From a virus: a DNA stretch of 41,883 nt. Every line of letters begins with the position of its first letter. The first letter of the stretch is position 1. The notes beneath the pieces are model-generated. The model was not told the DNA's origin, searched no databases, and was given only the letters and a program-made list of their open reading frames with translations. This document shows, one piece after another, positions 56 to 15,371 of the stretch. The position numbers and the translations under genes are program-made. The stretch is from IMG/VR virus record IMGVR_UViG_3300045988_090545. One strand, 5' to 3'.

Positions 56-1710
56 CAGACTGTAGACAAAACGCTTTTGGTCAGCACTCCAGAAGCGTTT
101 TTCTTGTTTTGGGTTCAAAAAGTGTGTACTTGATCAATAATAAACACTTTTGGGTTCCCCTTTTTCCCTTCCTGGCTATCATCTTTGCCAGTTTTTTCAG
201 ATTCATGCAGGCAAACGTAAGCCCGACTTTCATTTCCATCCGGGCTTTTCCTATCATCTGTGTATAGCGGAATCCGTGGTTTTCTTTTGCTGTTCCGAAG
301 AGGCGCTCTACGGTCTCTTTCCGTTGCGCATACACTTCCTTCATCCCAATCGTATGCCGGATATCCTCACACTTTTCCATGTACGGCTCCCAGATATGCC
401 GGGTCACTACCTTCACATGATCCCTGCTTTCTGTGCACTGCTTCAGATATGGACATCCTTCACAGACGATTCCGCAGCTCTTGTATTCCCGGTATCCGGA
501 ACGGTTCGTCGTATGATAAGCCAGCACCTGATCGTTCGGGCATACATAGCAGTCAAAATATTCATCATACACATACTCGCCTTTTTTGAAAAAACCATCT
601 TTGGTCATGGGGCGTTTATACGGCAGAAGCGGTGTGATACCATCATCCAGAAGTAACTTTGCTATCGCTGGTGTTTTGTATCCTGCATCGGCTACCAGTG
701 TCTGAATGCCAATGTCTTTTATCTTATCATACAGGGATTTAAATGTCCGGCTGTCATGCTGGTTGCCGGGATTTACACTATAACCCAGAATCCATCCGTT
801 TTTGTCACAGGCTGTCTGCACGGAATACGCAAAAACATTTTTATGCTCACCCTTTCGGAACCATCCGCTTTCCGGATCCGTTGTACTTTCCTTAACCGTT
901 TTTTCTTCTTTTCCATCAGAGCTGCCACCACAGGAGGGGGGATCTTTGGGATCTTCCTTCTTTTCTTCCAGAGGCTTTTTCCCATGCGCTTCCCGGTCTT
1001 CGTTGATTTCCTTCTTTAACTGCTCTTCGAAGAACAGTGCTTCCTCATCTGCAATCCGTTTCCGCATCTTTTTGCTGTTTGCCCGTGCTTTTACATGGGT
1101 GGCATCCACGAAGACCTCGGAAGGATCAATCAGTCTGTATTTATAGCATTCCTGCAGGATACGGGAAAAGATCTGTTCAAAAAGATCAGTATCCTTAAAG
1201 CGTCTGGTATAATTCTTTCCAAACGTAGAGAAATGGGGAACCTTGTCCATCATTTCCAGACCGAGGAACCATCGGTATGCGACATTGACTTCGATTTCTT
1301 TTACTGTCTGGCGCATACTTCGGATGCCGTACAGATACTGGATGAATGGAATTTTAATGAGCATGACCGGATCCATGCTGGGGCGGCCATTGTCTGCACT
1401 GTATTTATCGATCACAAGATCATAGATAAAACTCCAGTCGATTGCCTGGTCAATCAGGCGCAGCAGATGATCCTGCGGAACAAGGTCATCCATGCAGAAC
1501 ATCTGAATCTGCTCTCTTTTCTTATCTGCATTCTGTGTCATCATAGGAAACACCGCCTTTATTTTGATACTTTCATTATACCAAAAAAGTAGTGAAAAGT
1601 CCCGTAAATACGGCATTTTCACTACTTCTTATATGCTTGTAAGTACATAATTTTTGCAGTCATGACACAAGAAAAGCTCCCTCGCAGGAAGGCGCTTTGT
1701 CTACAGCCTG
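56..1710 (-). mobile_element. IS1182-family insertion sequence (1655 bp)
   Basis: Imperfect 19-bp terminal inverted repeats (17/19): CAGACTGTAGACAAAACGC at 56-74 and the reverse complement of 1692-1710, CAGGCTGTAGACAAAGCGC. Contains a single transposase ORF. Flanked by a 25-bp direct duplication at 31-55 and 1711-1735. Confidence 0.9.
81..1544 (-). CDS. IS1182/IS5-like DDE transposase
   Basis: The N-terminal region (LVPQDHLLRLIDQAIDWSFIY..DNGRPSMDPVMLIK..YGIRSMRQ) is typical of the DUF772 transposase N-domain. The C-terminal part carries a DDE-type region (VADAGY.., ETVERLFGTAKENHG). Start moved to the MMTQ.. ATG at 1544; the longer 1622 start lacks support. Confidence 0.9.
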   Translation of the reverse strand: MMTQNADKKREQIQMFCMDDLVPQDHLLRLIDQAIDWSFIYDLVIDKYSADNGRPSMDPVMLIKIPFIQYLYGIRSMRQTVKEIEVNVAYRWFLGLEMMDKVPHFSTFGKNYTRRFKDTDLFEQIFSRILQECYKYRLIDPSEVFVDATHVKARANSKKMRKRIADEEALFFEEQLKKEINEDREAHGKKPLEEKKEDPKDPPSCGGSSDGKEEKTVKESTTDPESGWFRKGEHKNVFAYSVQTACDKNGWILGYSVNPGNQHDSRTFKSLYDKIKDIGIQTLVADAGYKTPAIAKLLLDDGITPLLPYKRPMTKDGFFKKGEYVYDEYFDCYVCPNDQVLAYHTTNRSGYREYKSCGIVCEGCPYLKQCTESRDHVKVVTRHIWEPYMEKCEDIRHTIGMKEVYAQRKETVERLFGTAKENHGFRYTQMIGKARMEMKVGLTFACMNLKKLAKMIARKGKRGTQKCLLLIKYTLFEPKTRKTLLEC

Positions 1711-1711
1711 T

Positions 1712-1740
1712 AGGGAGAGTGTTATGCTCTCCCTTTTTTA
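1712..1740. terminator. Terminator stem-loop, copy 2, with T-tract
   Basis: Same 8-bp stem and 7-nt loop as 32-54, followed by TTTTTT. Part of the 25-bp target duplication. Confidence 0.75.
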
Positions 1741-2217
1741 TTCGTATGTCTTATATTCTTTTCCATCAGCAATGATTACTTTCATTTTATCCCACAATTT
1801 ATTAATATCTTCCGTATCCATTTCTATGTGTCTGCAGTCAAAACAAAAACCTGCCTTGCCGAGACTATCATTTACATATTTTCTTTCTCGTACTCTTTTT
1901 GCACATTCGGTTCTGTAATCATAATCAATTTCATCGTTCAATTTGTCATATGGAATATATACTATTATGGTTTTTGTATCACCATTATAGCTTCCACGCT
2001 TGGTTTTGCAATCAGGGCATTCCTGCTTATATTGAATGTAAGACATTTCAACTGCTTTGCACCCAATAGAGTTTTCTTTATCTTTTTGCTCTAAGTAACA
2101 TTCATGGCAAAGACCATATTTTTCAAAATATGCTATTTTTTTCTCTCTTTCTTCGCTTTTCCCGAAAAGTTCCTTTTCTTGAACATGTCCGCAGCTAAAT
2201 TTTACATTATATTTCAT
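1738..2217 (-). CDS. Hypothetical Cys-rich protein (several CxxC/CxH pairs, probably zinc-binding)
   Basis: 159-aa ORF with RBS-like AAGGAGAATTG upstream. Motifs CGH..CHEC..CPDC. No family recognised. Confidence 0.6.
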   Translation of the reverse strand: MKYNVKFSCGHVQEKELFGKSEEREKKIAYFEKYGLCHECYLEQKDKENSIGCKAVEMSYIQYKQECPDCKTKRGSYNGDTKTIIVYIPYDKLNDEIDYDYRTECAKRVRERKYVNDSLGKAGFCFDCRHIEMDTEDINKLWDKMKVIIADGKEYKTYE

Positions 2218-2259
2218 ATCAATTCTCCTTTGTTATGACTTATTTGCTGTTCCTTATGA

Positions 2260-2268
2260 TGTTATAAT
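2260..2268 (+). promoter_or_regulatory. Extended -10 promoter element TGTTATAAT for the RHH operon
   Basis: Matches TGnTATAAT and lies 125 nt upstream of the RHH start. Three operator-like repeats lie just downstream. Confidence 0.5.
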
Positions 2269-2273
2269 ACACT

Positions 2274-2348
2274 TATGTTCCCATAGTTTCAATTGCCAAA
2301 TTATACAAATATGTTCCCATATTTTTGTGCATTTTATATGTTCCCATA
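2274..2348 (+). promoter_or_regulatory. Three direct copies of a 12-bp operator-like box TATGTTCCCATA
   Basis: Exact copies at 2274-2285, 2310-2321 and 2337-2348. Each has internal TATG/CATA dyad symmetry. All lie between the promoter and the RHH gene. Confidence 0.6.
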
Positions 2349-2392
2349 GCAATAGGAATGTGCTATTATACTCATTGAAAGGAGTTGATGAC

Positions 2393-2575
2393 ATGGCAGT
2401 ATCGCAAAAGCAACTTGGATATGCAAAAAAATATCTGTCAACACTGGATGAAATCAGGATTCGTATTCCGAAAGGAAAGAAAGAGGAGTACAGATCCGCT
2501 GCGGAAGCATCAGGGAAGAGCCTAAATCAATTTATCATTGATTGCATTGAAGCAAATTTACAAACGAAAGGTTAA
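2393..2575 (+). CDS. Ribbon-helix-helix (Arc/CopG-like) DNA-binding protein
   Basis: 60 aa. RBS AAAGGAG lies 8 nt upstream of the ATG at 2393. The pattern ..IRIRIPKGKKEEYRSAAEASGKSLNQFIIDCI.. (beta-strand then helix-helix) is typical of RHH proteins. Confidence 0.65.
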   Translation: MAVSQKQLGYAKKYLSTLDEIRIRIPKGKKEEYRSAAEASGKSLNQFIIDCIEANLQTKG

Positions 2576-2578
2576 AAT

Positions 2579-2896
2579 GTGGAAATTATGAAAGAATTAG
2601 CAAAAATGTATTTATGTTACATGGAGGATGGAAGCAATTGCATTTATTGTAATCCTTACACAGGCAGAGCAGAGCCAGACGAAATAAACATTATTATTTA
2701 CGATTCGGAAACCGTGCATATTGTTAATTTGCAAGACGGAACAAAAGGCATAGAATTTGGAAGAGTTATTTATACAGACCATGAGTTAATATCTGATTCC
2801 AAAAACAAAAAGTTATTTGTAAGAATTTATAACAATGGAGATGAAATCGGAAGACCTACCGGGAAATTGGTTGGAATTGCAGAAATGGTGTTATAA
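2579..2896 (+). CDS. Hypothetical protein, co-transcribed partner of the RHH gene
   Basis: 105-aa ORF starting 4 nt after the RHH stop (GTG at 2579, or ATG at 2588), followed by a strong terminator. No family recognised. Confidence 0.55.
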   Translation: MEIMKELAKMYLCYMEDGSNCIYCNPYTGRAEPDEINIIIYDSETVHIVNLQDGTKGIEFGRVIYTDHELISDSKNKKLFVRIYNNGDEIGRPTGKLVGIAEMVL

Positions 2897-2902
2897 AAAA
2901 GC

Positions 2903-2936
2903 AAGAGAGAGGTTTTATCCTCTCTCTTCTATTTTG
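2903..2936. terminator. Bidirectional rho-independent terminator
   Basis: AAGAGAGAGG-TTTTAT-CCTCTCTCTT is a perfect 10-bp stem. It has an A-run on the left and a T-run on the right. Confidence 0.8.
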
Positions 2937-3069
2937 AAACAGAAAAACTATTTCAACCCGTGCCCGCCAGAATCGGCAGCGGAACCATCACAACGACCAT
3001 CTACGCTGTGAGACTGATTAGAATATAGCATATTACTTCGTTTTTGTCAAATCATAAGCCATTCTCCTA

Positions 3070-4071
3070 TTATGCTACTCTATTGTATTTGTGCTGCATC
3101 TCCTCTATATCATCCACAAGATAGTACTGGACCGTCATGTCAGGCTTTGCATGGCCCAGCAATTTACTCACCAGCAATACATCACCCGTCTTACGGTATA
3201 ATACGCTTGCAAATGTCTTACGATACACATGCACCGTGGCTGTGATCCTGGTTACTCCTCCCCGGACAGCTATTTCTTTAGCCAGCTTTTCGATACCGTA
3301 TGTGCGCATCCGGTTATATGGTGCTCTATCTGCCAAAAATAACGGATCTGTTCCCGGTCTGTCCCCGATATAATTTCTTAATGCCATGACCGCTACCGGT
3401 GTAAGCATTCCGGTGCGGTAGGTGTCTGTCTTCTCGGCATAGATTGATACCTGCCTGTGCACTAAATCAATATCTGACACATTCAAAGCGGAGATCTCGC
3501 CTACTCGCATTCCTGTGCAGATCATCAACTCAAACAATGCCTTTTCCTTGGGTGTCTGTAATGCATAACGGATAGTTTCAACCTCTTCATCCGTCAGGCG
3601 CACCTTCTTCTTTTTCACCTGCTTCACACGATCCACACCGTCAATGATATTATGCTGGATGTGCTGTTTACGGAATGCCCAGCCGAAGAACGTGCAGAGA
3701 TACCGGTATATGGTGGACTTATAATTTTGGCTGATATGATCCCGGTAACTCCTGATAGCAAGGTAATCTGTGATATCCTGTGCAGTAATTGCTTTGTAAT
3801 TTTTGCCAACATGGTTAAAAAACTTACTGATGATACCGATATAGCTGCGAATTGTGCCTTTATGCAGTCCTTCCGCTACTCCATCGACGCAGTATCTCTG
3901 CATCAGCCATTCGTTATCGTGATCTACGACAACCGGCAATTGTTTACTCTCTACCAGCTCAAAGTCCTGCAGTTTTACATACAAGGTGATTTTCATGCGG
4001 TCAATCTGTTCCTTGCTTAAAAAATCGTCCAGTTCATAGGCAACTTCATTAATCAGGTCATTTTTCGTCAT
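3070..4071 (-). CDS. Tyrosine site-specific recombinase (XerC/D / phage-integrase family)
   Basis: Catalytic signature R (CTGMRVGE), HxxR (HVYRKTF), H (LLGHAKPDMT) and Y (VQYY), plus an N-terminal SAM-like domain. RBS AAAGAGG lies before the ATG at 4071. Confidence 0.9.
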   Translation of the reverse strand: MTKNDLINEVAYELDDFLSKEQIDRMKITLYVKLQDFELVESKQLPVVVDHDNEWLMQRYCVDGVAEGLHKGTIRSYIGIISKFFNHVGKNYKAITAQDITDYLAIRSYRDHISQNYKSTIYRYLCTFFGWAFRKQHIQHNIIDGVDRVKQVKKKKVRLTDEEVETIRYALQTPKEKALFELMICTGMRVGEISALNVSDIDLVHRQVSIYAEKTDTYRTGMLTPVAVMALRNYIGDRPGTDPLFLADRAPYNRMRTYGIEKLAKEIAVRGGVTRITATVHVYRKTFASVLYRKTGDVLLVSKLLGHAKPDMTVQYYLVDDIEEMQHKYNRVA

Positions 4072-4191
4072 AAGTGTACCTCTTTCTATTGCCTGCCAGG
4101 TAATCATATTTTATGATACTGGTAAGCAGTTGAGCGGTAGATGATATCTTTGGTCGGTGGGTGTACCGCTGTTTTTATGTAACAGTGACCA

Positions 4192-4220
4192 TTGACAGAT
4201 ATTTCAAGTCATGGTATTAT
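4192..4220 (+). promoter_or_regulatory. Near-consensus sigma-A promoter (TTGACA-17 nt-TATTAT) pointing antisense into the mini-gene array
   Basis: -35 at 4192-4197 and -10 at 4215-4220 with a 17-nt spacer. No convincing plus-strand ORF lies downstream. Confidence 0.45.
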
Positions 4221-4293
4221 TTGTTTGAATGGAACAAATGTTCTGTATTCGTGGATTTATCCCGGTGCAGTACATTTTGTTTTATCAAGGATT

Positions 4294-4494
4294 TCATTTC
4301 ACTCGCTTGTAAATATAATCACCCAGATAAATGATGCCATCGTAAAAATCTTTTGAATGCTTAGTTAAATCAATCTTGACTCTTTCATCTGAGAAAAATT
4401 CTGACATTAATCCGCATAACTTTTCCTGTTCAGAAGCCCTACCAGCAAAGAAAGCTGCAGATGTCAATAAAAGTATTTGTATGATTCCTCCCAT
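4294..4494 (-). CDS. Small hypothetical protein with hydrophobic N-terminus
   Basis: 66 aa from the ATG at 4494, preceded by AAAGGAG. The longer 4536 start would overlap the upstream mini-gene. Confidence 0.5.
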   Translation of the reverse strand: MGGIIQILLLTSAAFFAGRASEQEKLCGLMSEFFSDERVKIDLTKHSKDFYDGIIYLGDYIYKRVK

Positions 4495-4505
4495 TATCTT
4501 CTCCT

Positions 4506-4673
4506 TTACTTTTTGTCCGTCAATTCTCTGCCGCACAGCGGGCAGATTTTTATTTTTATTGCTCCCATCGGCTCGTTTTCGCTGTTGCAGAAAAGCATAT
4601 AATTCTCCGCTCCTAGCCTAATAATCCCATGTTTGCAACTTACATTTATATATTTCTCGCAAAAATCACACAT
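4506..4673 (-). CDS. Mini zinc-ribbon protein (55 aa), below the ORF-track cutoff
   Basis: Hand translation: MCDFCEKYINVSCKHGIIRLGAENYMLFCNSENEPMGAIKIKICPLCGRELTDKK. AAAGGAG lies 7 nt upstream. The ORF is preceded by a degenerate copy of the array element. Confidence 0.55.
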   Translation of the reverse strand: MCDFCEKYINVSCKHGIIRLGAENYMLFCNSENEPMGAIKIKICPLCGRELTDKK

Positions 4674-4700
4674 TTCGAATCTCCTTTACTAAATTTCAGT

Positions 4701-4934
4701 TTAGATGTTCATAACACCAGACTTCCATCCTGCTTTTTTAGCCTCTTCTGAAAGAATCTCATTTTCTTCAGCTATAGCCATTTTTCTTTGTTGTTTTTCT
4801 AAACAATATATTGATAAAATTTCATCCACCAACTCATTAATACTACATAACATATCTCCGTCAACCTCTTCGGTTCGTTCTGCATCATTTAAAATATTTT
4901 TTATATCTTCTGCACATTCATGTATTTTTCTCAT
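4701..4934 (-). CDS. Small acidic hypothetical protein
   Basis: 77-aa ORF preceded by array element copy B (GGAGG 7 nt upstream). Confidence 0.55.
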   Translation of the reverse strand: MRKIHECAEDIKNILNDAERTEEVDGDMLCSINELVDEILSIYCLEKQQRKMAIAEENEILSEEAKKAGWKSGVMNI

Positions 4935-4966
4935 ACAAATGCCTCCATAAATCTTAATATTTCAGT

Positions 4967-5257
4967 TTACTTATCATATTTCTTATCATCCAAAAGATCT
5001 ACATCTGTATAATTATCAAGACACTTTTCATAACGCCCTTCCTGCTTAGTAATGCCAGAATAAGTTTCATATGGGTTTGGAAGATTATGCTTCTTACAAC
5101 AGTCATAGCAAATAACAAAGCTTCTTGTTTTTTCTCTACACCCATATGGTTCATTGTCCGTATGATATCTGGCAAAATTTTGAAAAGGTGTCATAGATAA
5201 CAGCGTTGCCGTTCTATCACAGTCTTTTCCACAAAAATCACAAATTGCATGTATCAT
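4967..5257 (-). CDS. Small Cys-rich hypothetical protein (CDFC..CYDCC)
   Basis: 96-aa ORF preceded by array element copy C (GGAGG 9 nt upstream). Confidence 0.55.
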   Translation of the reverse strand: MIHAICDFCGKDCDRTATLLSMTPFQNFARYHTDNEPYGCREKTRSFVICYDCCKKHNLPNPYETYSGITKQEGRYEKCLDNYTDVDLLDDKKYDK

Positions 5258-5292
5258 CCTATTATCCCTCCACTAAATCCTAATATTTCAGT

Positions 5293-5448
5293 TTAGTTTA
5301 AATCCTCATCATAATAAAAACAGTCTCCGTCGCACGTTTCACACCCAATCGGGCATTGTTCTATATCATTTGGATTTCTTTTTTCATCATCTGCTTTACA
5401 ATATCCAATCGGGCAAAACACTTCTACACCGTCTTGCAATAATATCAT
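5293..5448 (-). CDS. Mini Cys-rich protein (51 aa), below the ORF-track cutoff
   Basis: Hand translation: MILLQDGVEVFCPIGYCKADDEKRNPNDIEQCPIGCETCDGDCFYYDEDLN. GGAGG lies 7 nt upstream (element copy D). The TAA stop is the first triplet of element copy C. Confidence 0.55.
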   Translation of the reverse strand: MILLQDGVEVFCPIGYCKADDEKRNPNDIEQCPIGCETCDGDCFYYDEDLN

Positions 5449-5461
5449 TCTTCTACCTCCG

Positions 5462-5674
5462 CTAAATCCCTAATATTTTTCTAAATATATTCCTTTTGGG
5501 CTTAATCACCTCGAAACACTTTTCTTTCCAGTCGAAGACATAATCCAGGTTGTATGAACTGAAACCAATATTGTAATGTCGCTTTCCTACCTCTCTGTAT
5601 TTTATTTCAAAATAAGGTTTTTCTTTTTTTCCAGTGACAATTATCTCGATTTCGCTTACTTTTATTTTTTCCAT
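5462..5674 (-). CDS. Small hypothetical protein
   Basis: 70-aa ORF with element copy E (AAAGGAG 6 nt upstream). Its last codons (..ILGI*) are encoded by element copy D. Confidence 0.55.
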   Translation of the reverse strand: MEKIKVSEIEIIVTGKKEKPYFEIKYREVGKRHYNIGFSSYNLDYVFDWKEKCFEVIKPKRNIFRKILGI

Positions 5675-5695
5675 ATTCCGCTCCTTTGCTAAATC

Positions 5696-5863
5696 CTAAG
5701 ACTTTAAGACCAAAGTTCCATTATTCCTTTCGACAGTATCCATTAAATGCATTGCTGCGTTTAGTGACTCCTTCTCTGCCAGAGATAATTCATCTGCAAA
5801 CTTATCAAATATGCAGGAAAGATTATTTATATGCTCCCGTGTTTCCGCATTATATATTTTCAT
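5696..5863 (-). CDS. Mini hypothetical protein (55 aa), below the ORF-track cutoff
   Basis: Hand translation: MKIYNAETREHINNLSCIFDKFADELSLAEKESLNAAMHLMDTVERNNGTLVLKS. GGAGG lies 6 nt upstream (copy F). The TAG stop lies inside copy E. Confidence 0.5.
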   Translation of the reverse strand: MKIYNAETREHINNLSCIFDKFADELSLAEKESLNAAMHLMDTVERNNGTLVLKS

Positions 5864-5875
5864 CCTATTCCTCCA

Positions 5876-6055
5876 CTAAATCCTAAGAGCATTACCGCAA
5901 AATCTACAGTACTTTGCCAATATCACACACTTGGAACCGCCTGTATAATGGCTTTCCACATATTTGTGTACTACTGCTCCGCAATATTTACAAGTTATTC
6001 TTGCCATAACAGCGTAGCTGTTATTTATTTCTTTCTGTTCATCGTGTGACCACAT
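5876..6055 (-). CDS. Mini zinc-ribbon protein (CKYCG..CRFCG)
   Basis: 59 aa from the ATG at 6055, with element copy G (AAGGAG 11 nt upstream). The 6094 start in the ORF track would translate the element itself. Confidence 0.5.
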   Translation of the reverse strand: MWSHDEQKEINNSYAVMARITCKYCGAVVHKYVESHYTGGSKCVILAKYCRFCGNALRI

Positions 6056-6086
6056 TTCTCGCTTAACTCCTTCGCTAAATCCTAAG

Positions 6087-6329
6087 TTACTCACTTACCA
6101 ATTCTGACAATTCCAAAAAATCAAGACTTCCCAGACCGTCATATATTCTATCAACTTCTTCCACGATTTCTTCACAGTACCCAGCCATTCTCAGTTGATC
6201 TGCAAAATCAGAATCTAAAGATTCGCAACCATATTCTGTTTTTGTTGATTTTTTCTGAAATTTCTCGTTTTTAGACATTTCCAAGCTTTCAATGCAACCA
6301 TTATCCGTTGTTTCAATGCAATATTTCAT
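6087..6329 (-). CDS. Small acidic hypothetical protein, first gene of the mini-gene array
   Basis: 80-aa ORF with RBS AGGAGG 7 nt upstream. Preceded by two strong hairpins rather than by the array element. Confidence 0.55.
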   Translation of the reverse strand: MKYCIETTDNGCIESLEMSKNEKFQKKSTKTEYGCESLDSDFADQLRMAGYCEEIVEEVDRIYDGLGSLDFLELSELVSE

Positions 6330-6356
6330 GTGATTTTCCTCCTGTTTTTAATTTGC

Positions 6357-6410
6357 CGAACTACCGAATTATCCTCGGTAGTTCGATTTCTCCCCCGTAT
6401 TACCGGGGGA
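6357..6410. promoter_or_regulatory. Two adjacent strong stem-loops at the operon boundary
   Basis: CGAACTACCGA-ATTATCC-TCGGTAGTTCG (11-bp stem, 6357-6385) and TCCCCCG-TATTAC-CGGGGGA (7-bp stem, 6391-6410). The second is followed on the plus strand by TTTTAACTTGCTTTTG. Confidence 0.6.
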
Positions 6411-6456
6411 TTTTAACTTGCTTTTGAGTTACTATTTCACTTTTTAGTTCCTGTTT

Positions 6457-6630
6457 TCAGTTCCTGCTTAATAAGATGCTCATCATATATGCACCAATTA
6501 TCAACTGGTCGATTTTACTCATTTCATCAAAACATCTTGCATGTAGTTCACCGCTCATCAGTGTTTTCTCCATACTCAACAGCTCCGGCCAGTCTTTCCG
6601 CCAGTGGAATAATTTATAAAATTCCATCAT
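6457..6630 (-). CDS. Small hypothetical protein
   Basis: 57 aa from the ATGATG at 6630, immediately after the upstream stop (TGATAATGATG). The longer 6726 start would overlap the upstream gene by 94 nt. Confidence 0.4.
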   Translation of the reverse strand: MMEFYKLFHWRKDWPELLSMEKTLMSGELHARCFDEMSKIDQLIIGAYMMSILLSRN

Positions 6631-6632
6631 TA

Positions 6633-7235
6633 TCACCCCGTCATAATGCTTCCTGCAGTCTGAGTAAGCGGATCCACCGGCGGTTCCATGACCACCCCGG
6701 CTTCCGTGAGTAATGCACGGGACCACTCTCGGACGGTGGTCTTGTCCTGCTGATATGACAGTAACAGCTCATTCATGTATTCTTCGACCCGGGTCAGCCT
6801 GTCTTTGCCGAATCCGTACTCATCCATCAGCGCCGTGAAGAAAAACAACATATACCTTGTAGCCTGCTCATTGATGGTATTCTGCGGTGCAATCTGCTTC
6901 TGATCAAGCCAGTACTGATAGGACCCCTTCCGGGCGGTGATGTCATCCTCGGTATAGGCTTTATACTCAATGGACCATCCAGCCTTATCCATCAGCCGCT
7001 GGCTAATCTTTTTCAGATCAACCTTGCCCGCGGACCAGTCAGTTTCCATCTCATTAACCTTGTTCGCCAGTCGGGAGATCCGCTGCCCCTTGAATCCCTC
7101 CCGACGCATGATCACATAGCTGCAGATGATTCCCATTGCTGTCCAGGGTGTCCGGTCAGCCATACGGCTTTCCCGGGAGATCCGCTTGCACTGCTCTTTG
7201 ATCTCTGCCGGTGTCAAATGTCTCTTCTTTCCCAT
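6633..7235 (-). CDS. Hypothetical phage early protein
   Basis: 200-aa ORF with RBS GGAGGTATACATG upstream. No family recognised. Confidence 0.6.
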   Translation of the reverse strand: MGKKRHLTPAEIKEQCKRISRESRMADRTPWTAMGIICSYVIMRREGFKGQRISRLANKVNEMETDWSAGKVDLKKISQRLMDKAGWSIEYKAYTEDDITARKGSYQYWLDQKQIAPQNTINEQATRYMLFFFTALMDEYGFGKDRLTRVEEYMNELLLSYQQDKTTVREWSRALLTEAGVVMEPPVDPLTQTAGSIMTG

Positions 7236-7244
7236 GTATACCTC

Positions 7245-8618
7245 CTACGCAAACCGGAGTTGCCCGGTCTGCTCTGCTTCTATTCTCATGTTCGGTGTAC
7301 GCTCTCCTATTCGGAGATCACTGCAGTTTGCAGATACCAGTGCTTCTGCCATAACCGGCACTACGCTGTTACCTATCCTTGCCACTCGCTCCACAATAGG
7401 ATATGTTTTTCCTGCAATATCCCTATCAATGATATAATCCTCGGGAAATCCCTGCATCAGCTTCAATTCTTCCGGCTTCAGCATCCGCAGAAAAATGTCT
7501 TTTATAACATATTGCTCTCCATCAATCTCAATCAGAACATTCACCAGTCCGAACCGATCCTTTGTGGTAATGGTCCCCAGCGGCTTATCCAATGTCTGAC
7601 CACAACCGGTTCCGTAATATTTGACCATAAACGCAGATACAAGTCCGAAATGTCCAGGGGAAGTGGTGATTGTATGCAGTGGCTCGTCACACCCCTGTCC
7701 GATCCCAGTCTTATAAAACTTTGTGACAAATGCGGTTACCAATCCGTACCGGTTGCTGGTATCAATAGTCTTGATAGGATCCGTAAGGAGTTGTCCCCGG
7801 GAATCCCCCTGCCTGGTCTCACCGTGATACTGGATGATAAATGCCAGCGCATCCTTACTTTTGACGATATACGGATGTGGATTATTAATTATGTACTTCC
7901 TCACACCATTACCGATTCTGTCCATTGTAGCCGCTGCCAGAGGCTTCTTACGCTCAAATATGGATGTTCCAAGATCAGACCAGTCAATATAGTCACCGCA
8001 TTCTTTCCATCTCGGTAGCAGTATCCCATCTTTACTGTATGTAGGTGCTGGCCAGACGATTTTATTTCCATCCCGCCGGAAAATTGCATACCATCTTTTC
8101 CGTGTCGTAGGTGCCCCATAATCCGCAGCCACAAGTTCCCGACTATCGAAATCATATCCAAGAGAGGTCATTGCTGTAATAAACTTACGGTAGTCCTCTC
8201 CCCTGCGTTCTGGTATCGGGTGACCGTCTGCATCCAGCGGACCCCACTGTTGTATCTCTTCAACATTCTCCATGATGATTACATCTGGCAGTAGCACTTT
8301 TGCGTGCTTGTACACCGCCCAGGGAAGTATTCGCAATCCTTTTTTGCGTGGTTGCCCGCCCTTTGCTTTGCTATGGCTTGTACAGTCAGGTGATGCCCAC
8401 ATCAAAGCCACATGGCGATCTCCAACATATTTTTGCAAATCTACCTTAAAAATATCCTCTGTCAGATGCAATGTGTCAGGGTGGTTTACCATGTGCATCC
8501 GTATAGCCTGCGGATCGTGGTTTACGGCAATGTCAACAGATCTTCCAAGTGCCATTTCTATTCCTACGCTTGCTCCGCCGCCACCGGCAAAGCAGTCAAT
8601 GATAATGTTATTTTTCAT
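7245..8618 (-). CDS. DNA (cytosine-5)-methyltransferase, orphan
   Basis: Motif I IIDCFAGGGGASVG, motif IV variant ASPDCTSHS, motif VI IIMENVEE, QGFPEDY, motif X RIGNSVVP. No adjacent endonuclease. Confidence 0.9.
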   Translation of the reverse strand: MKNNIIIDCFAGGGGASVGIEMALGRSVDIAVNHDPQAIRMHMVNHPDTLHLTEDIFKVDLQKYVGDRHVALMWASPDCTSHSKAKGGQPRKKGLRILPWAVYKHAKVLLPDVIIMENVEEIQQWGPLDADGHPIPERRGEDYRKFITAMTSLGYDFDSRELVAADYGAPTTRKRWYAIFRRDGNKIVWPAPTYSKDGILLPRWKECGDYIDWSDLGTSIFERKKPLAAATMDRIGNGVRKYIINNPHPYIVKSKDALAFIIQYHGETRQGDSRGQLLTDPIKTIDTSNRYGLVTAFVTKFYKTGIGQGCDEPLHTITTSPGHFGLVSAFMVKYYGTGCGQTLDKPLGTITTKDRFGLVNVLIEIDGEQYVIKDIFLRMLKPEELKLMQGFPEDYIIDRDIAGKTYPIVERVARIGNSVVPVMAEALVSANCSDLRIGERTPNMRIEAEQTGQLRFA

Positions 8619-8833
8619 GGCATCACCTCCGGCATAAAATCAAACAATGTAGGCTCGTCCACCTCATTCTCCGCTGCCTGCAGGTACCCCACACCATCCC
8701 TGAAGTAATCTGGATTCAGTTCACACCCTTTACCGTACCTGTGCATCTTCACCGCTTCTGCTATACGCACTGGAATCATTCCACTATGAGGTCTAATATT
8801 TTGAAATTCTCTTATTGCTTCATTCTCCGTCAT
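8615..8833 (-). CDS. Small protein resembling only the C-terminal end of an N4/N6 DNA methyltransferase (possible remnant)
   Basis: 72 aa. ..RYGKGCELNPDYFRDGVGYLQ..PTLFD resembles the ..GRxxIGIELNPEY.. tail of N4/N6 methylases. There is no DPPY motif, and the position of the FxGSG motif is degenerate. Its stop overlaps the C5-MTase start (ATGA). Confidence 0.35.
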   Translation of the reverse strand: MTENEAIREFQNIRPHSGMIPVRIAEAVKMHRYGKGCELNPDYFRDGVGYLQAAENEVDEPTLFDFMPEVMP

Positions 8834-8835
8834 GT

Positions 8836-9219
8836 CTACTCTCCCTTCTGTGGATATAAAAGTTTCAAATCATATCCACTTTCTATAAATTTAATTGTTA
8901 ATTCATGATTGACCGCATTACCAAGTTTATCGTATATCCAATACATATCCTCTTGTGTAAATTGTGTTCCGAGATATTTGTTGTATCCAAAAAGAAGTAT
9001 TTCTCTCCATTCTTTATTTCTCTTCTCTTGGCGGTAAGGTTCACCCTTTGCAAGTGGTCTGGAGCACCACTCTAAAAGTTTACAGATAATATCTTTCTGT
9101 GTCTTACAGTCTTTTGCTGTAAAATACACATTCCCTTTGTCTGATAAAATAAGTTCTCCAAATTGAGTAATATAACTCTTTGGGAAACATTCCATTACTT
9201 TGAAAACCTCATCAATCAT
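8836..9219 (-). CDS. Hypothetical protein
   Basis: 127-aa ORF in the early operon. No family recognised. Confidence 0.55.
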   Translation of the reverse strand: MIDEVFKVMECFPKSYITQFGELILSDKGNVYFTAKDCKTQKDIICKLLEWCSRPLAKGEPYRQEKRNKEWREILLFGYNKYLGTQFTQEDMYWIYDKLGNAVNHELTIKFIESGYDLKLLYPQKGE

Positions 9220-9221
9220 GG

Positions 9222-9668
9222 CTACTCCTCCAACAATTCCGGGTTGTCAAATACATTCCCAATCACTGAACATTCATCACCTAAAACTTCATAACTTTCA
9301 GCAGATAATCTGTTTGTCACTTGGAAGGAAATTGTTTCATCATCCCATACGACTTTACCGACACAATTTGCTTCCGCCAGTCCGCTGTCTGTGCTGTATA
9401 CATCCAAATAAGTTACAATGTCATTTTCAAAAATCAGCTTACCGTTCTTGTCCTTAAGTCCTGTACACTGGCAGATAGTGTTCGGGTCTATCTCGTAGAA
9501 ATTTATACCAGTAACATTCCAATCATCGCAAGCAGTTCCATTGTATTTTTCAATAACAATTCCGCCAATAAATACTCTTCCATTTTCAAATCCATCATCA
9601 AACAAGTAACCATGTACCCATTCTCCATTATCAATCCGCTTTCCACGGAATAAATATCTATCTTGCAT
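9222..9668 (-). CDS. YopX-family phage protein
   Basis: MQDRYLFRGKRIDNGEWVHGYL..CQCTGLKDKNGKLIFENDIV..GNVFDNPELLE matches the YopX pattern. Start taken at the ATG at 9668. Confidence 0.75.
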   Translation of the reverse strand: MQDRYLFRGKRIDNGEWVHGYLFDDGFENGRVFIGGIVIEKYNGTACDDWNVTGINFYEIDPNTICQCTGLKDKNGKLIFENDIVTYLDVYSTDSGLAEANCVGKVVWDDETISFQVTNRLSAESYEVLGDECSVIGNVFDNPELLEE

Positions 9669-9670
9669 CC

Positions 9671-9946
9671 TCATTCCTCGCTTTCTGCCCTGAGCCATTC
9701 ATTCATCTCGTAGGTTCCCGATATGCTCTGGTCGTGATAACCGTATGTTTCTACTGTCACTAAAAAATCTGCCAGCTCATCGTCAGTCATGCTCCTGATC
9801 CGGTCTGCGTTGGTCATAGGGGAGTAGTGCTCGCAATCTCTTTCTATGTCCTCATGCGGACAGTCGTTGATTTTCTCGCACCATGAGTACGCATCAAACC
9901 CGTTATCCTTTGTTTCTAAATTCTTGCAATTATTACATTTCACCAT
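9671..9946 (-). CDS. Hypothetical Cys-rich protein
   Basis: 91 aa from MVKCNNCKN.., with RBS AGGTGGAAG directly upstream of 9946. Confidence 0.5.
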   Translation of the reverse strand: MVKCNNCKNLETKDNGFDAYSWCEKINDCPHEDIERDCEHYSPMTNADRIRSMTDDELADFLVTVETYGYHDQSISGTYEMNEWLRAESEE

Positions 9947-9953
9947 CTTCCAC

Positions 9954-10181
9954 CTACTTTTCTTGCAAAAATCTCTTGATGACATCAATATCTCTGTCCA
10001 GCACGCTTAAATGCTCTTTGTTCATTTTTTGATAGACAATCAAGGGATTCTGTCTTCCTGCCTTTTTCGCTCTTAATACTTCCCATATACCTTTGGGTTC
10101 TTCAATCGTCCATCCATCTTTGATAAGCCATTTGCGAAAAGCATCCAATTTGTTGCTATGCAGTGTGTTCCTATTTGCCAT
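9954..10181 (-). CDS. Small hypothetical protein
   Basis: 75 aa from MANRNTL... The ATG overlaps the upstream stop region, and GAGGAAGAG serves as the SD. Confidence 0.45.
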   Translation of the reverse strand: MANRNTLHSNKLDAFRKWLIKDGWTIEEPKGIWEVLRAKKAGRQNPLIVYQKMNKEHLSVLDRDIDVIKRFLQEK

Positions 10182-10557
10182 TCTCTTCCTCACTTTCCCG
10201 GTACGGCTCCGGCAGTGGCATCCAAGCAATAACTTCAAATGGAATTGTCTCTCCGTCTGCATTGTTCCATCCGTGACCGTCATATCCGACAAAATACGGA
10301 AGTATATTTTCAAAATCAGTTTGTGTTGACGGCTCATAGTCCATAACAGTTACCAAACATCCATATGCTTCTTCCGGCAGTCTCTCGCTTACTGGAATCC
10401 ACACCGGCTGATTCTGCAAGTCGGTGATTGCCATTTGTAATGCATCCTCATAGCAATGATCTACTCCAGTTTGTCCGTACAGAGGACATTCTTCACAAAC
10501 CTCTGAGTACCGTTCACTCTGAGCCTTTAAGCAGTAAATAGCTTTTTCTCTCTTCAT
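10171..10557 (-). CDS. DUF551-like phage protein
   Basis: WIPVSERLPEE...VIAWMPLPEPY is the DUF551 signature. ATGA overlap with the upstream stop at 10554-10557. Confidence 0.65.
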   Translation of the reverse strand: MKREKAIYCLKAQSERYSEVCEECPLYGQTGVDHCYEDALQMAITDLQNQPVWIPVSERLPEEAYGCLVTVMDYEPSTQTDFENILPYFVGYDGHGWNNADGETIPFEVIAWMPLPEPYRESEEENGK

Positions 10558-10931
10558 TCCGAACCCTCCATTTCTTTCAGCTTGGCTTCGGCTTTTTTCT
10601 TGGATGACCAATATCTTCCATTTTTATCTATTTTTCTAATTTCATAGACTGTTAAATCATTAATACTTTTGCTCATTACGGTTGCGTATTTTGTACCTTT
10701 ATCACAGATGAACCAGACCTCATTGCATGGTAACCGCAGGATCAATCCCTGTTCCTCGGCATCCTCATAGGCTGCCAGCTTCTCTATTGCGCAATATCCT
10801 CCATCGCAATTTGTATATTTATCATTCGGCTTTTCTCCAAAACACTGATAAAATGTTCTTAATCCGTTTTCAACGTGATTCTCCTTTACCAAAATTCCAT
10901 CAGCAGTTCTTTCTGTCAGTCTCTCCATCAT
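10554..10931 (-). CDS. Hypothetical phage protein (MERLTER.. type)
   Basis: 125-aa ORF with RBS GGGAAAGGA upstream. Confidence 0.55.
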   Translation of the reverse strand: MMERLTERTADGILVKENHVENGLRTFYQCFGEKPNDKYTNCDGGYCAIEKLAAYEDAEEQGLILRLPCNEVWFICDKGTKYATVMSKSINDLTVYEIRKIDKNGRYWSSKKKAEAKLKEMEGSE

Positions 10932-11109
10932 TGATCCTTTCCCATTCCTTCATGACTTCTCTTTCTCTTTTCCATTTGTCGATCCTGTACTTGATGTTAT
11001 CTTTCACAATGTTTACCAAGATAATCATTCCAAAGATTATCCAGACAAAAACCAACAATGCGATCAATACCACTCCAACCATATCTGATAAAGTCACAAT
11101 AAACTTCAT
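10900..11109 (-). CDS. Small single-pass membrane protein
   Basis: 69 aa. TM segment VGVVLIALLVFVWIIFGMIILV followed by a charged tail. RBS AAAGGAG upstream. Confidence 0.55.
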   Translation of the reverse strand: MKFIVTLSDMVGVVLIALLVFVWIIFGMIILVNIVKDNIKYRIDKWKREREVMKEWERINDGETDRKNC

Positions 11110-11127
11110 TTTGCATACACTCCTTTC

Positions 11128-11448
11128 TCACGCTCTCAAAAACTGCTTCGGTATCGGCACTCCATTTCGGTCATAAAAAGTAAAATCTCTGTACGGGTAA
11201 TGCCGGTTGTTCCCCGCCAACCGAAAGAATGTTGGCCGGCTTTCTGACACCTCCAACAGCCCATTCCCAATATTCGGGTAGCTGTCCTTATCATTCTTCA
11301 CGGCATATATCTTCATGGTTCTTACTTCTTTCTGCATGTATCTTTGGTTTCTCCGCCATTGCTGGATAACTGCAGTCATACGGTTTTGCCCGTCCGATAT
11401 TCCTTGACATTTCTCCCGGATGCTCTTCCATCTCCCGTAATTCATCAT
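11128..11448 (-). CDS. Hypothetical protein
   Basis: ORF coupled to the upstream stop (TGATG). An alternative internal start lies at 11316. Confidence 0.45.
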   Translation of the reverse strand: MMNYGRWKSIREKCQGISDGQNRMTAVIQQWRRNQRYMQKEVRTMKIYAVKNDKDSYPNIGNGLLEVSESRPTFFRLAGNNRHYPYRDFTFYDRNGVPIPKQFLRA

Positions 11449-11777
11449 CACTGTGAAATCCTCTGCTCACGTTTCTTTATCCACCTTTCTCTGTCGTATT
11501 TATGTCTTCTCTCGCGGTATGCAGGGTCAAATGCGCGCTTATATTTCCAATGTGCATCCATCTCTGCCTTGCGCTCTGCCCGAAGCCTTATCGTGGCATC
11601 TTCATCAACCACAGCCTTATACCTATGCGTTTTCCGGCACCATGAATCCCTATGCAGGCAGGTCCGAAATGTCTGTTCCGGGATCCCCAAGTAATCAGCC
11701 GCGGCTTTTGCCCCGAAGATATCCACCTTCACCGGCAGTTCAAATTCATCATTCGTCACTATCATGTACGCTTTCAT
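11448..11777 (-). CDS. Hypothetical protein (possible HTH)
   Basis: ORF with GGAGG upstream of the ATGs at 11780/11777. Basic C-terminus. Confidence 0.5.
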   Translation of the reverse strand: MKAYMIVTNDEFELPVKVDIFGAKAAADYLGIPEQTFRTCLHRDSWCRKTHRYKAVVDEDATIRLRAERKAEMDAHWKYKRAFDPAYRERRHKYDRERWIKKREQRISQ

Positions 11778-12360: not shown

Positions 12361-12370
12361 CGTTCTCCCT

Positions 12371-13180: not shown

Positions 13181-13196
13181 TCATTTCACCTTCTTT

Positions 13197-14498: not shown

Positions 14499-14500
14499 TA

Positions 14501-15121
14501 TCAATCATCCCCATATTTCTCTCTCAACGTCTGCAGCATCATTCCCACTTCTGATCCCGTCAAGGTTTCTACGGTCTTGTTGTTACTTTTAGCCCAGTAA
14601 GCAAGATTAACCTTATGTTTCTCACATAACTGTTTCAAGACCGTCATACTGGCAGCGGAAGGTTGAGCATCATCTTGAGGTATTCCCATCTGGAAAGGTC
14701 TCGCTTCTTCTTTTAGCCACAAATCAAATCCAAGACCAGTATTGATAGCAACGCACTTTACAAAAGATCTGCACATGCTGTTCCATACCCTCTGCTGCGA
14801 CATGGAATTATCTTTTACTGGATTTGTACCATTCATTACAGGAGACTGCATCTCAAATTCCATATCATCAATTACGACCCGTATTCTTGTCTCATAGCAA
14901 CGATTAGTATTATTTTTGCTGTCTGAAAATACTGCTTCTGTCATACGTAGGCTTGTTCCTGTTTTTTCATCAGGAATCGGAGTCCACCGGACCACCTTTG
15001 CACCGTTCTCATGCAAAAGAGAAATGCATTTTGCCCAATTCAGATAAAGCATTTCATCTCGCTCTTCACAAAATGGTCTTACATCTATTTTTCTTAATTC
15101 ATCCCAAGGTTTAAGTGCCAC
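14501..15121 (-). CDS. Rad52-like single-strand annealing protein (Sak/DUF1071 type)
   Basis: ..MLYLNWAKCISLLHENGAKVV... matches the YLxWA motif context. GTG start at 15121 is preceded by GAAAGGAAG. The ATG at 15208 would overlap the upstream gene by 98 nt. Confidence 0.55.
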   Translation of the reverse strand: MALKPWDELRKIDVRPFCEERDEMLYLNWAKCISLLHENGAKVVRWTPIPDEKTGTSLRMTEAVFSDSKNNTNRCYETRIRVVIDDMEFEMQSPVMNGTNPVKDNSMSQQRVWNSMCRSFVKCVAINTGLGFDLWLKEEARPFQMGIPQDDAQPSAASMTVLKQLCEKHKVNLAYWAKSNNKTVETLTGSEVGMMLQTLREKYGDD

Positions 15122-15371
15122 TATATTCTTCCTTTCTCCATGCTCCACCACTGAAGTACCATTCAACAAGCATGGTTCTAAATTCCTTCTGATCTTCCTC
15201 TGACCCATTTAAACACTGATCAAGTGCATATTTATAAGCTTCCTTCTCAGGAACAAAATCACCAGTACCAAATTTGTGGTAACCATGCTCTTTTACTACT
15301 TCAGGTTGTGATGGATAACAACTTTCCCATTCAGAATCCACAACCATGCGGTTCTCAATCCTTTCCGGCAT
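15111..15371 (-). CDS. Hypothetical protein
   Basis: 86 aa from the ATG at 15371, with GAGGAAGGTGATAAGG upstream. Confidence 0.5.
   Translation of the reverse strand: MPERIENRMVVDSEWESCYPSQPEVVKEHGYHKFGTGDFVPEKEAYKYALDQCLNGSEEDQKEFRTMLVEWYFSGGAWRKEEYSGT

Follow-up and report, generated by a model that had tools for sequence, protein, structure and literature searches.

A conserved stop-codon and ribosome-binding-site element at the junctions of shuffled mini-genes in human-gut phages

Short conserved sequences in front of small phage genes have been described in several systems. The promoter-early stem-loops (PeSLs) of T4-type phages (Arbiol et al. 2010, PMC2839356; Comeau et al. 2014, PMC4122927) are intergenic motifs repeated in front of many small genes of unknown function in a hyperplastic region of virulent T4-like myoviruses. 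PeSLs span the upstream stop codon, the Shine-Dalgarno sequence (SD) and the start, and combine a strong sigma-70-type early promoter with a stem-loop terminator or attenuator, so that each cassette is its own transcription unit. Comparative genomics shows that they bound insertions, deletions and replacements, homologous recombination between copies has been proposed, and mini-circles have been shown. The start-associated sequences (SAS) of Cluster K mycobacteriophages (Pope et al. 2011, PMC3203893) are asymmetric 13-bp repeats with the consensus GGGATAGGAGCCC that embed the SD a few bases from the start codon, in a single orientation and with an ATG bias. They are restricted to the non-structural arm, associated with genes of different families and dispersed over half a genome, and a subset (ESAS) carries 17-bp imperfect inverted repeats. 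The upstream stop sometimes lies inside the repeat. SAS were proposed to act in translation, and a role as exchange points was not reported in that paper.

In the modular theory of phage evolution (Susskind and Botstein), short conserved linker or boundary sequences lie between interchangeable, otherwise unrelated modules, where homology breakpoints coincide; the idea is discussed in PMC2839356. In lambdoid phages such sequences are few and their role is disputed, because illegitimate recombination plus selection is the favoured model. Integrons carry arrays of promoterless, same-orientation, unrelated small genes drawn from a shared pool, each bounded by an attC site, an imperfect inverted repeat that folds as a single-stranded hairpin, and moved by an IntI-class tyrosine recombinase.

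We analyzed a 41,883-nucleotide stretch of viral DNA (IMG/VR record IMGVR_UViG_3300045988_090545), referred to here as the window. A first-pass annotation, made from the sequence alone, had described seven copies of a start-associated element in front of consecutive mini-genes at 4681-6086, and this observation was confirmed. On the minus strand, the element consists of an optional arm TAAACTGAAAT(A), the core TTAGGATTTAG, one base, the SD GGAGG, and an ATG 6 to 11 nt on. Five copies are strong and two are degenerate (Table 1). The SD-to-ATG spacing is 11, 6, 6, 7, 9, 7 and 7 nt in copies 1 to 7, as the annotation had stated. The three ways in which it had described the use of the stop codon were also correct: TAA as the first triplet of the arm (three times), TAG after tct (once), and read-through to ..LRI* and ..LGI* on ATT-TAG.

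Table 1. Features of the mini-gene array and its surroundings (all on the minus strand; c and f numbers denote mini-gene cassettes and genes, L numbers phages of the comparison set)
Coordinates	Feature	Sequence	Context
6067..6086	Element copy 1	CTTAGGATTTAGCGAAGGAG	TAA of the upstream gene (6089-6087) abuts it; ATG of c14 at 6055
5870..5887	Element copy 2	CTTAGGATTTAGTGGAGG	c14 reads through it and stops on ATT-TAG; ATG of c168 at 5863; homology with the near-isogenic phage L261 (99.9% over 9482..5868) ends here
5681..5700	Element copy 3	CTTAGGATTTAGCAAAGGAG	c168 stops on its first TAG; ATG of c17 at 5674; left end of the 17-149-41-11 block shared at 99.5-99.7% with L110 and L011
5456..5474	Element copy 4, with a 1-nt G insertion	ATTAGGGATTTAGCGGAGG	c17 ends ..LGI* on ATT-TAG; ATG of c149 at 5448
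5267..5295	Element copy 5, full extended form	TAAACTGAAATATTAGGATTTAGTGGAGG	its TAA is the stop of c149; ATG of c41 at 5257
4942..4969	Element copy 6, extended variant with one substitution and one deletion	TAAACTGAAATATTAAGATTTATGGAGG	its TAA is the stop of c41; ATG of c11 at 4934; travels with c11 behind 12 or more different upstream families
4681..4703	Element copy 7, arm plus truncated core	TAAACTGAAATTTAGTAAAGGAG	its TAA is the stop of c11; ATG of f109 at 4673; with copy 6 gives c11 direct repeats of the arm on both sides
4506..6329	Eight consecutive mini-genes of unknown function, encoding mutually unalignable proteins of 51-96 aa		f112 6087-6329, c14 5876-6055, c168 5696-5863, c17 5462-5674, c149 5293-5448, c41 4967-5257, c11 4701-4934, f109 4506-4673
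3070..4107	Xer-like tyrosine recombinase (345 aa), a second recombinase; a role in the element system is not supported		downstream of the array; present after 16 of 27 arrays
14501..15208	Sak-type (Rad52-like) single-strand annealing protein		inferred candidate catalyst of short-homology exchange (PMC3945230)
6337..6465	Conserved, strongly structured non-coding leader with three hairpins		immediately upstream of the first array gene

To determine whether the element is specific to the array, we searched both strands of the window allowing up to 3 mismatches. The search found copies 1 to 5 and nothing else, while shuffled sequences predicted 0.06 matches and 0 of 100 shuffles reached 5. The core TTAGGATTTAG occurs 4 times, only in the array and only on the minus strand, and TAAACTGAAAT occurs 3 times, only there. 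Of 65 ORF starts on that strand, 40 have an SD, but only the six array genes have the 11-mer within 2 mismatches; the other 59 have 3 or more. The absence of the element elsewhere in the window, as the annotation had noted, was thus confirmed.

Some details required correction. Three copies had been said to carry the extended form, but only one has the exact extended sequence and the other two are variants. Copies 6 and 7 do not fit the 18-mer consensus. The array had been said to end at a tyrosine recombinase; however, two further genes without the element (one with copy 7, one with none) and a 186-nt gap separate the last good copy from the recombinase. The flanked genes had been called unrelated, and indeed the proteins do not align with one another, with only Met1 invariant, and fall in different blastp families. 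Four of the mini-proteins are Cys-rich (CxxC pairs), and two of these (starts at 5257 and 4673) share a CDFC start. Searches with Pfam, PHROG, NCBIfam and PADLOC models gave no significant match for the mini-proteins. Only weak Pfam and PHROG hits were obtained, all to families of unknown function or below cut-off.

To further explore the distribution of the element, we compared more than 150 related loci. The 17-mer was found in more than 103 IMG/VR contigs (a lower bound) and the exact 23-mer in 43, and arrays of 3 to 6 copies are common. Of 211 unique copies, 186 have an ORF start 11 to 32 nt after the core, with peaks at +18 and +20, and 183 of those 186 starts are ATG. No copies were found on the opposite strand in the arrays. 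The upstream stop is used at TAG(-4) 40 times, TAA(-17) 30 times, TAA(-9) 29 times, TAG(+3) 28 times and TGA(-12) 20 times, which covers all three reading frames. The element lies at 120 different gene-pair junctions, from 57 upstream and 45 downstream families.

We then asked where linkage switches between the two flanking genes. Junction pairs sharing only the upstream family are about 0.8 identical up to -6 and fall to background at +6, while pairs sharing only the downstream family are at background up to -6 and at 0.8 or above from +6. Sequence 5' of the core therefore travels with the upstream gene and sequence 3' with the downstream gene. Pairs with different genes on both sides are identical only in the core and the SD. 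Because these junctions were selected with a pattern that fixes the core, core identity in this profile is by construction and only the flanks are informative. In the array, 91% of blastn homology-block ends lie within 25 nt of a gene junction, against 24% expected; in the backbone of the same phage, the figure is 23% against 10% expected.

Cassettes are gained, lost, replaced and reordered exactly at the element. They are 97-100% identical between phages whose neighbouring recombinase is 70-92% identical. Examples are L033 (c168 99.5% versus 73%), L049 (c11 99% versus 71%) and L110 (a four-cassette block at 99.7% versus 84% and 92%). L261 is 99.9% identical to the window over 3,615 nt, and the match ends just after the SD of copy 2. 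L253 has c11 then c41, where the window has c41 then c11; L107 has c149 then c14, and L269 has c14 then c41. The crossover position varies: for c11 it lies in the arm (12 partners), inside the core (L253) or in the SD (L078), which fits homology-guided rather than fixed-site exchange. The exact cassette proteins are present in 61 to 16,677 blocks of public assemblies and in unrelated backbones. All comparative data are metagenome assemblies. Chimeric joins at a repeat of 29 nt or less are unlikely with usual k-mer sizes, and several arrangements recur in independent samples, although this argument is a general one rather than a formal test.

Among deposited phages, no record encodes c11. Clostridium phage CS266P2, a gut Clostridia phage that shares a c17-like stretch, has the core at none of 18 gene starts. 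A scan of a bacterial genome collection gave chance single matches, and none of the 120 loci examined carries cassette genes. The gut Clostridia/Lachnospiraceae host assignment is only inferred, from weak hits to Roseburia phage Jekyll and CS266P2.

We favour, with fair confidence, the view that the element is a standardised intercistronic adaptor at which homology-guided recombination shuffles mini-gene cassettes. Arm and core together supply stop codons in all three reading frames just before the SD, so that any upstream gene would be terminated and the next gene started in the same way. Because the same sequence separates otherwise unrelated mini-genes in many co-circulating gut phages and prophages, it would act as a portable patch of homology, and recombination inside it would join any upstream cassette to any downstream cassette without damaging either gene. 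The recombination could be single-strand annealing by a phage Sak/Rad52-type protein, host RecA, or replication template switching. Exchange between non-allelic copies would insert, delete, replace and reorder cassettes, resulting in a shared pool of mini-genes at the end of the early/replication operon. The window encodes a Sak annealing protein, and Rad52-like recombinases recombine short, diverged homologies (PMC3945230).

The comparison itself establishes the anatomy of the element, its restriction to the mini-gene array, its presence at 120 distinct junctions, the switch of linkage exactly at the core, the breakpoints at the elements, the near-identical cassettes in diverged backbones and the permuted orders. 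On the other hand, we infer that homology in the element causes and initiates the exchanges, which enzyme carries them out, and that mobility of cassettes and/or uniform translational coupling keeps the 11-nt core invariant. The homology is short: between unrelated junctions, uninterrupted identity has a median of 12 nt and reaches 17 nt or more in 25% of pairs and 23 nt or more in 4%. This is below the published minimal efficient pairing segments of 23-27 bp for Red-beta and 31-34 bp for RecA (PMC3945230), and exchange at short forms must therefore be rare per event or use another route. Homology alone also does not explain how new genes acquire the core, nor why it is fused to the SD at a fixed distance, and a function in expression may be what conserves it.

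The first-pass annotation had proposed either a recombination linker or a dedicated translation-initiation or RNA-protein recognition signal, and its interpretation was partly supported. The linker alternative is strongly supported, while the expression signal is neither shown nor excluded. As the primary role of the core, with recombination only a side effect of its being shared, an expression signal (a translational enhancer or coupling element, or the binding or cleavage site of a host or phage RNA-binding protein) appears unlikely to us, but it is compatible with the linker rather than exclusive of it. The core is always fused to the SD with a 1-2 nt gap, always on the coding strand, and almost always followed by ATG. 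The junction RNA is A/U-rich and unstructured, carries an AGGA just upstream of GGAGG, and has stops in all three frames 15-37 nt before the next start, a good layout for termination-reinitiation. Cluster K SAS show the same positional logic. However, among junctions chosen by protein family alone, 15% have no core, including members of families that usually have one (for example, family 29 after family 51). This analysis used the mismatch distribution only, since spacing indels blur the ATG-anchored columns from which per-site diversity (pi) of the core against codon positions would be read. The absence of the core from the other gene starts of the window and from those of CS266P2 also argues against this reading, and no gene co-occurs with all arrays, which sit in unrelated backbones. 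The CUGAA/UUUAG hairpin proposed for the extended form is not supported: it is no better than shuffled sequence (-4.3 kcal/mol, z -1.4), absent from the short forms and broken in copy 6. Folds of all seven junctions gave -0.2 to -4.9 kcal/mol with z from -1.4 to +0.9, and an Rfam scan of 3000-8000 at E up to 1 gave only two sub-threshold chance hits, neither on an element.

An integron-like system, in which the Xer-like recombinase recognises the element and moves cassettes by site-specific recombination, is very unlikely, and the loose resemblance to cassette arrays noted in the annotation fails on several counts. An apparently intact recombinase with visible RHR and Tyr motifs follows 16 of 27 arrays, its best NCBIfam match is a model named 'site-specific tyrosine recombinase/integron integrase', the cassettes are promoterless and in one orientation, and the extended element has a weak 8-6-7 dyad layout, ACTGAAAT-ATTAGG-ATTTAGT. 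However, all recombinase models, including the best, Xer-type hits, score below their cut-offs. The integron-integrase model TIGR02249 reaches 63.8 of 265 bits, covering only residues 82-246, and NF011946 reaches 39.6 against 435. No such gene lies within 4 kb of 11 of 27 arrays, extended forms are not enriched where it is present (15 of 49 against 12 of 30, p = 0.47), and only 47 of 207 contexts have the left arm. The dyad is not better than shuffled sequence, no attC-like inverted repeats were found, crossover positions vary, and the recombinase diverges to 70% identity while the core stays invariant. Recent tandem duplication of one gene's leader, named in the annotation as a refuting scenario and doubted there, or simple vertical inheritance, with no role at all, is refuted. 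Although the copies are direct repeats at roughly 190-330 nt spacing, the flanked proteins are unalignable, the core precedes 45 unrelated downstream families in more than 100 contigs, flanks on the two sides segregate independently, and cassettes are more similar between phages than their backbones are.

Compared with PeSLs, the element shares the repetition in front of many small genes of unknown function in a hyperplastic region, the position across stop, SD and start, and the proposed action by homologous recombination between copies, and copies bound the insertions, deletions and replacements that distinguish related phages. However, a promoter or terminator nature is not supported: the array has no promoter-like site at or above 10 of 12 on the minus strand, none coincides with an element, and no minus-strand terminator or stable stem was found. 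The element is only 11-29 nt long, is a purely translational junction inside an operon, and belongs to unrelated hosts and phages (temperate phages from human-gut metagenomes). Compared with SAS, it shares the asymmetric short repeat, the position immediately upstream of starts, the embedded SD, the single orientation, the ATG bias, the restriction to the non-structural arm, the association with genes of different families and an upstream stop that sometimes lies inside the repeat, but the sequence and host differ, the genes form one contiguous array, and the 5' arm is a direct-sequence extension with no inverted repeats at the junctions. Exchange at the element is the main evidence here. Like lambdoid boundary sequences, the element is a short conserved sequence between interchangeable, otherwise unrelated modules, where homology breakpoints coincide; here, however, one 11-mer is found at 120 different junctions, and the breakpoint enrichment is quantitative. 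As in integrons, promoterless, same-orientation, unrelated small genes drawn from a shared pool form arrays, each gene bounded by a repeated site, with a tyrosine recombinase nearby in some cases, but there is no IntI-class integrase, attC structure or attI/Pc arrangement, the crossover point is variable, the recombinase is dispensable, and the repeated site is also the stop/SD junction itself. We found no paper with the motif string in a phage context and no description of this element in the searched literature.

It is possible, though somewhat less likely than not, that many human-gut temperate phages and prophages on unrelated backbones share a communal pool of mini-genes that behave as mobile cassettes without any dedicated recombinase. 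Mobility would then be encoded in a universal adaptor of 11-29 nt that combines stops in three frames with the SD, a recombinase-free functional analogue of an integron. The adaptor would be kept invariant by selection on cassette spread: the cassette with the longest adaptor on both sides, c11, is the one found in 16,677 assembly blocks.

The element also defines a simple sequence tag for finding the hypervariable accessory region of these phages, which is where anti-defence and host-takeover genes are usually found. The tag gives a set of very widespread mini-proteins of unknown function, such as c11, that are worth characterising, and the adaptor design, with stops in all frames followed by an SD, is of practical interest as a natural standard part for polycistronic constructs. 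How phage genomes become mosaic is an old open question: one view holds that special linker sequences guide the exchanges, the other that random illegitimate joins are filtered by selection. This locus bears directly on that question, since breakpoints are measured at the element and not at ordinary gene boundaries of the same phage, and nearly identical cassettes sit in diverged backbones, which makes the linker hypothesis directly testable in an abundant group of gut phages.

On the minus strand, seven copies of a junction element were found in a 1.4-kb stretch in front of consecutive mini-genes. Five of the copies match CTTAGGATTTAGYGRAGG with 0 to 3 mismatches. Dinucleotide-preserving shuffles predicted 0.06 matches, and none of 100 shuffles reached 5. 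The other two copies are variants of an extended form that begins with the arm TAAACTGAAAT. The 11-mer core TTAGGATTTAG and the arm TAAACTGAAAT occur nowhere else in the 41.9-kb window on either strand, and of 65 ORF starts on the minus strand, only the six array genes have the 11-mer within two mismatches. The spacing between the SD and the ATG is 6 to 11 nt, and the upstream gene stops in the three ways described in the first-pass annotation. Thus, the observation made in that annotation was confirmed.

The flanked proteins (51 to 96 aa) could not be aligned with one another. They returned no significant Pfam or PHROG match (only weak hits, to families of unknown function or below the cut-off) and no NCBIfam or PADLOC match. 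Four of these proteins are Cys-rich. While the first-pass annotation called the mini-proteins unrelated, two of them share an N-terminal (I/M)CDFC(G/E)K motif and further CxxC pairs, and c14 and c149 (cassettes are denoted by c and the number of their protein family) are also Cys-rich. These may be zinc-ribbon-type small proteins.

The window is a temperate phage genome from a human-gut-type metagenome, with almost all genes on the minus strand. The large terminase gene is preceded by a ParB-methylase, and a lysogeny module on the plus strand holds an HTH repressor and a large serine recombinase, the likely integrase. The replication/recombination module contains a Sak single-strand annealing protein, a GIY-YIG protein, YopX and a C5 methylase, and the mini-gene array closes this early operon. 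The array is followed by a Xer-like tyrosine recombinase, located between the array and the packaging genes, which is therefore a second recombinase and not the integrase, and is present in only about 60% of related arrays. The insertion sequence at 56-1710 is a recent insertion, since the related loci L260 and L265 are 100% identical to the window on both sides but lack it. A protein with DUF7666 and collagen-like triple-helix repeats sits at the head of the early region, and blastn showed repeats within it.

Coordinates of the junction elements and other features in the window
Feature	Position	Strand	Detail
Region with the seven element copies	4681-6086	-
Element copies matching CTTAGGATTTAGYGRAGG	6086, 5887, 5700, 5473 and 5284	-	0 to 3 mismatches
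Extended variant	4969-4942	-	one substitution and one deletion
Extended variant	4703-4681	-	seven bases of the core lost
Arm TAAACTGAAAT on both sides of c11	4969-4959 and 4703-4693	-
Cassette c11	4701-4934	-	77 aa
Mini-genes whose proteins share the CDFC-type motif	4967-5257 and 4506-4673	-
Non-coding leader	6337-6465	-	immediately upstream of the first array gene
Xer-like tyrosine recombinase	3070-4107	-
Insertion sequence	56-1710	-	ORF 81-1622; DDE transposase (DUF772 plus DDE_Tnp_1_6), 513 aa
YopX gene	9222-9698		left end of the L261 identity block at 9482
Sak single-strand annealing protein	14501-15208
DUF7666 and collagen-like protein	15543-16493	-	internal repeats at about 15790-16000
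Large serine recombinase	18107-19459	+
TerL	38731-40329

To explore whether the element occurs in other phages, we searched IMG/VR contigs for exact sequences. TTAGGATTTAGYGRAGG was present in more than 103 contigs, which is a lower bound, and the exact 23-mer TAAACTGAAATATTAGGATTTAG was present in 43 contigs, where essentially none is expected by chance. Arrays of three to six copies on one strand were common. We also examined the position of each copy. Among 211 unique copies, 186 were followed by an ORF start 11 to 32 nt after the core, with peaks at +18 and +20, and 183 of the 186 starts were ATG. The upstream ORF ended at TAG(-4), TAA(-17), TAA(-9), TAG(+3) or TGA(-12), so that arm and core together serve all three frames. 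Loci retrieved independently, by exact identity to the cassette proteins of the window, showed the same cores at new junctions.

We also analyzed the leader upstream of the first array gene. This conserved non-coding sequence folds into three hairpins (MFE of -40.9 kcal/mol, z of -5.6, with 0 of 200 shuffles as good). The module GAACU-stem-GAAAA-stem-AGUU recurred in 36 of 147 loci, at a median of 439 nt before the next core and sometimes in tandem. It has two stem versions (ACCGAG/UUCGGU and GGUAAA/UUUACY) that differ by fully compensatory changes. No U-tract and no Rfam match were found for the leader.

To determine how the cassettes are arranged, all ORFs of 129 loci plus the window were clustered into families. 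The same cassette families appeared in many orders, with an element in front of each family after the first. For example, the order was 112-14-168-17-149-41-11 in the window, 62-14-71-17-111 in locus L021, 37-14-29-11 in L058, and 62-135-14-21-55-11 in L040. In all, there were 120 different (upstream, downstream) pairs, from 57 upstream and 45 downstream families. Junction alignments showed that the stretch from the SD to the ATG travels with the downstream gene, while the stop context travels with the upstream gene. Junction pairs sharing only the upstream family stayed about 0.8 identical to position -6 and were at background by +6, whereas pairs sharing only the downstream family were at background to -6 and at 0.8 or above from +6. 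Pairs sharing neither family were alike only in the core and the SD.

An analysis free of ORF calls and motif regexes agreed with these results. The blastn blocks between the window and the loci began 5 to 23 nt before a core and ended 5 to 19 nt after one. In the array, 91% of the block ends were within 25 nt of a gene junction, where 24% was expected. In the backbone of the same phage, the figure was 23% against 10% expected, and in the recombinase region, 12% against 6%.

The comparisons further showed that the exchanges are recent and include reordering. Cassettes are 97 to 100% identical in DNA between phages whose adjacent backbone genes are only 70 to 92% identical. In L033, c168 is 99.5% identical while the recombinase is 73% identical; in L049, c11 is 99% identical while the recombinase is 71% identical; and in L110, the block c17-c149-c41-c11 is 99.7% identical, against 84% and 92% for the neighbours. 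L261 matches the window at 99.9% for 3,615 nt, and the match stops right after the SD of the second copy of the element. The left end of the same block falls inside the YopX gene, showing that breakpoints outside the array are not confined to gene boundaries. L253 carries c11 and then c41, the reverse of the window, L107 carries c149 and then c14, and L269 joins c14 directly to c41.

The exact cassette proteins are abundant in public assemblies. c11, a protein of unknown function, was indexed in 16,677 blocks, far more than its neighbours c149 (1,624), c41 (1,202), c168 (1,124), c17 (1,105) and c14 (61). The cassettes sit in unrelated backbones: Sak/methylase phages; PcfJ/SSB/RecU/beta-clamp phages; an element with PTH2, an RNAP-alpha-CTD-like gene, nSTAND3, SIR2 or ADP-ribosylglycohydrolase; and an element with RecG/HU/sigma/PARP. 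In loci L253, L255, L267, L270, L271, L274, L282 and L286, the same cassettes (17-149-41-11, or 11-41) lie in a different kind of element that also encodes PTH2, an RNA-polymerase-alpha-CTD-like protein, an nSTAND3/AAA protein, SIR2 or ADP-ribosylglycohydrolase, and TelA, and whose gene content looks defence- or counter-defence-related.

The crossover point is not fixed. c11 keeps its own variant element behind 12 different upstream families, so the crossover is in or before the arm, whereas the crossover lies inside the core in L253 and in the SD in L078. The arm alone also serves as an exchange point downstream of c11. This is what homology-guided exchange predicts, and not what a site-specific enzyme predicts. 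Sak (Rad52-like) annealing proteins, one of which is encoded in the window, recombine short and diverged homologies better than RecA does (PMC3945230). However, uninterrupted identity between unrelated junctions has a median of 12 nt and reaches 23 nt in only 4% of pairs, so that most pairs are below the reported minimal efficient pairing segments. Events at short forms must therefore be rare, or involve annealing or template switching at microhomology. The junction position of the element, the shuffled gene orders and the switch of linkage at the core are shown by the comparisons, all of which rest on metagenome assemblies; on the other hand, the route of exchange, the enzyme that carries it out, and the selection that maintains the core are inferred from sequence alone.

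The first-pass annotation proposed that the element is either a recombination linker for swapping cassettes or a dedicated translation-initiation or RNA-protein recognition signal, and this interpretation was partly supported. The core may be conserved by selection for cassette mobility, or by an expression function such as uniform termination-reinitiation or a protein-binding site, and the two are compatible. Against an obligatory expression role, 15% of the junctions chosen by protein family alone have no core, no other gene start in the window has it, and the deposited gut phage CS266P2 has none at 18 starts. The hairpin between CUGAA and UUUAG, proposed in the annotation for the extended form, was no better than shuffled sequences and is lacking in the short forms, and no Rfam family was found. 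The loose resemblance to cassette arrays, suggested from the nearby tyrosine recombinase, was not supported either, as no attC-like repeats were detected. The recombinase is Xer-like and scored below all curated cut-offs, including that for integron integrase; it is absent from 11 of 27 arrays, and its presence is unrelated to that of extended forms (p = 0.47).

In function, the closest known system is the PeSL of T4-type phages (PMC2839356, PMC4122927), while in position the closest is the SAS of Cluster K mycobacteriophages (PMC3203893), and conceptually it is the linker of the modular theory. The element differs from PeSLs in being a bare stop/SD junction without transcriptional signals or structure, since no promoter or terminator accompanies the copies. 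It differs from SAS in sequence, in array organisation and in the exchange demonstrated by the comparisons, and from integrons in lacking IntI and attC. In the literature searched, including for the motif string itself, no description of the element was found. We consider it of considerable interest, as an unusually clean, quantitative and abundant case that bears on how phage mosaicism arises.
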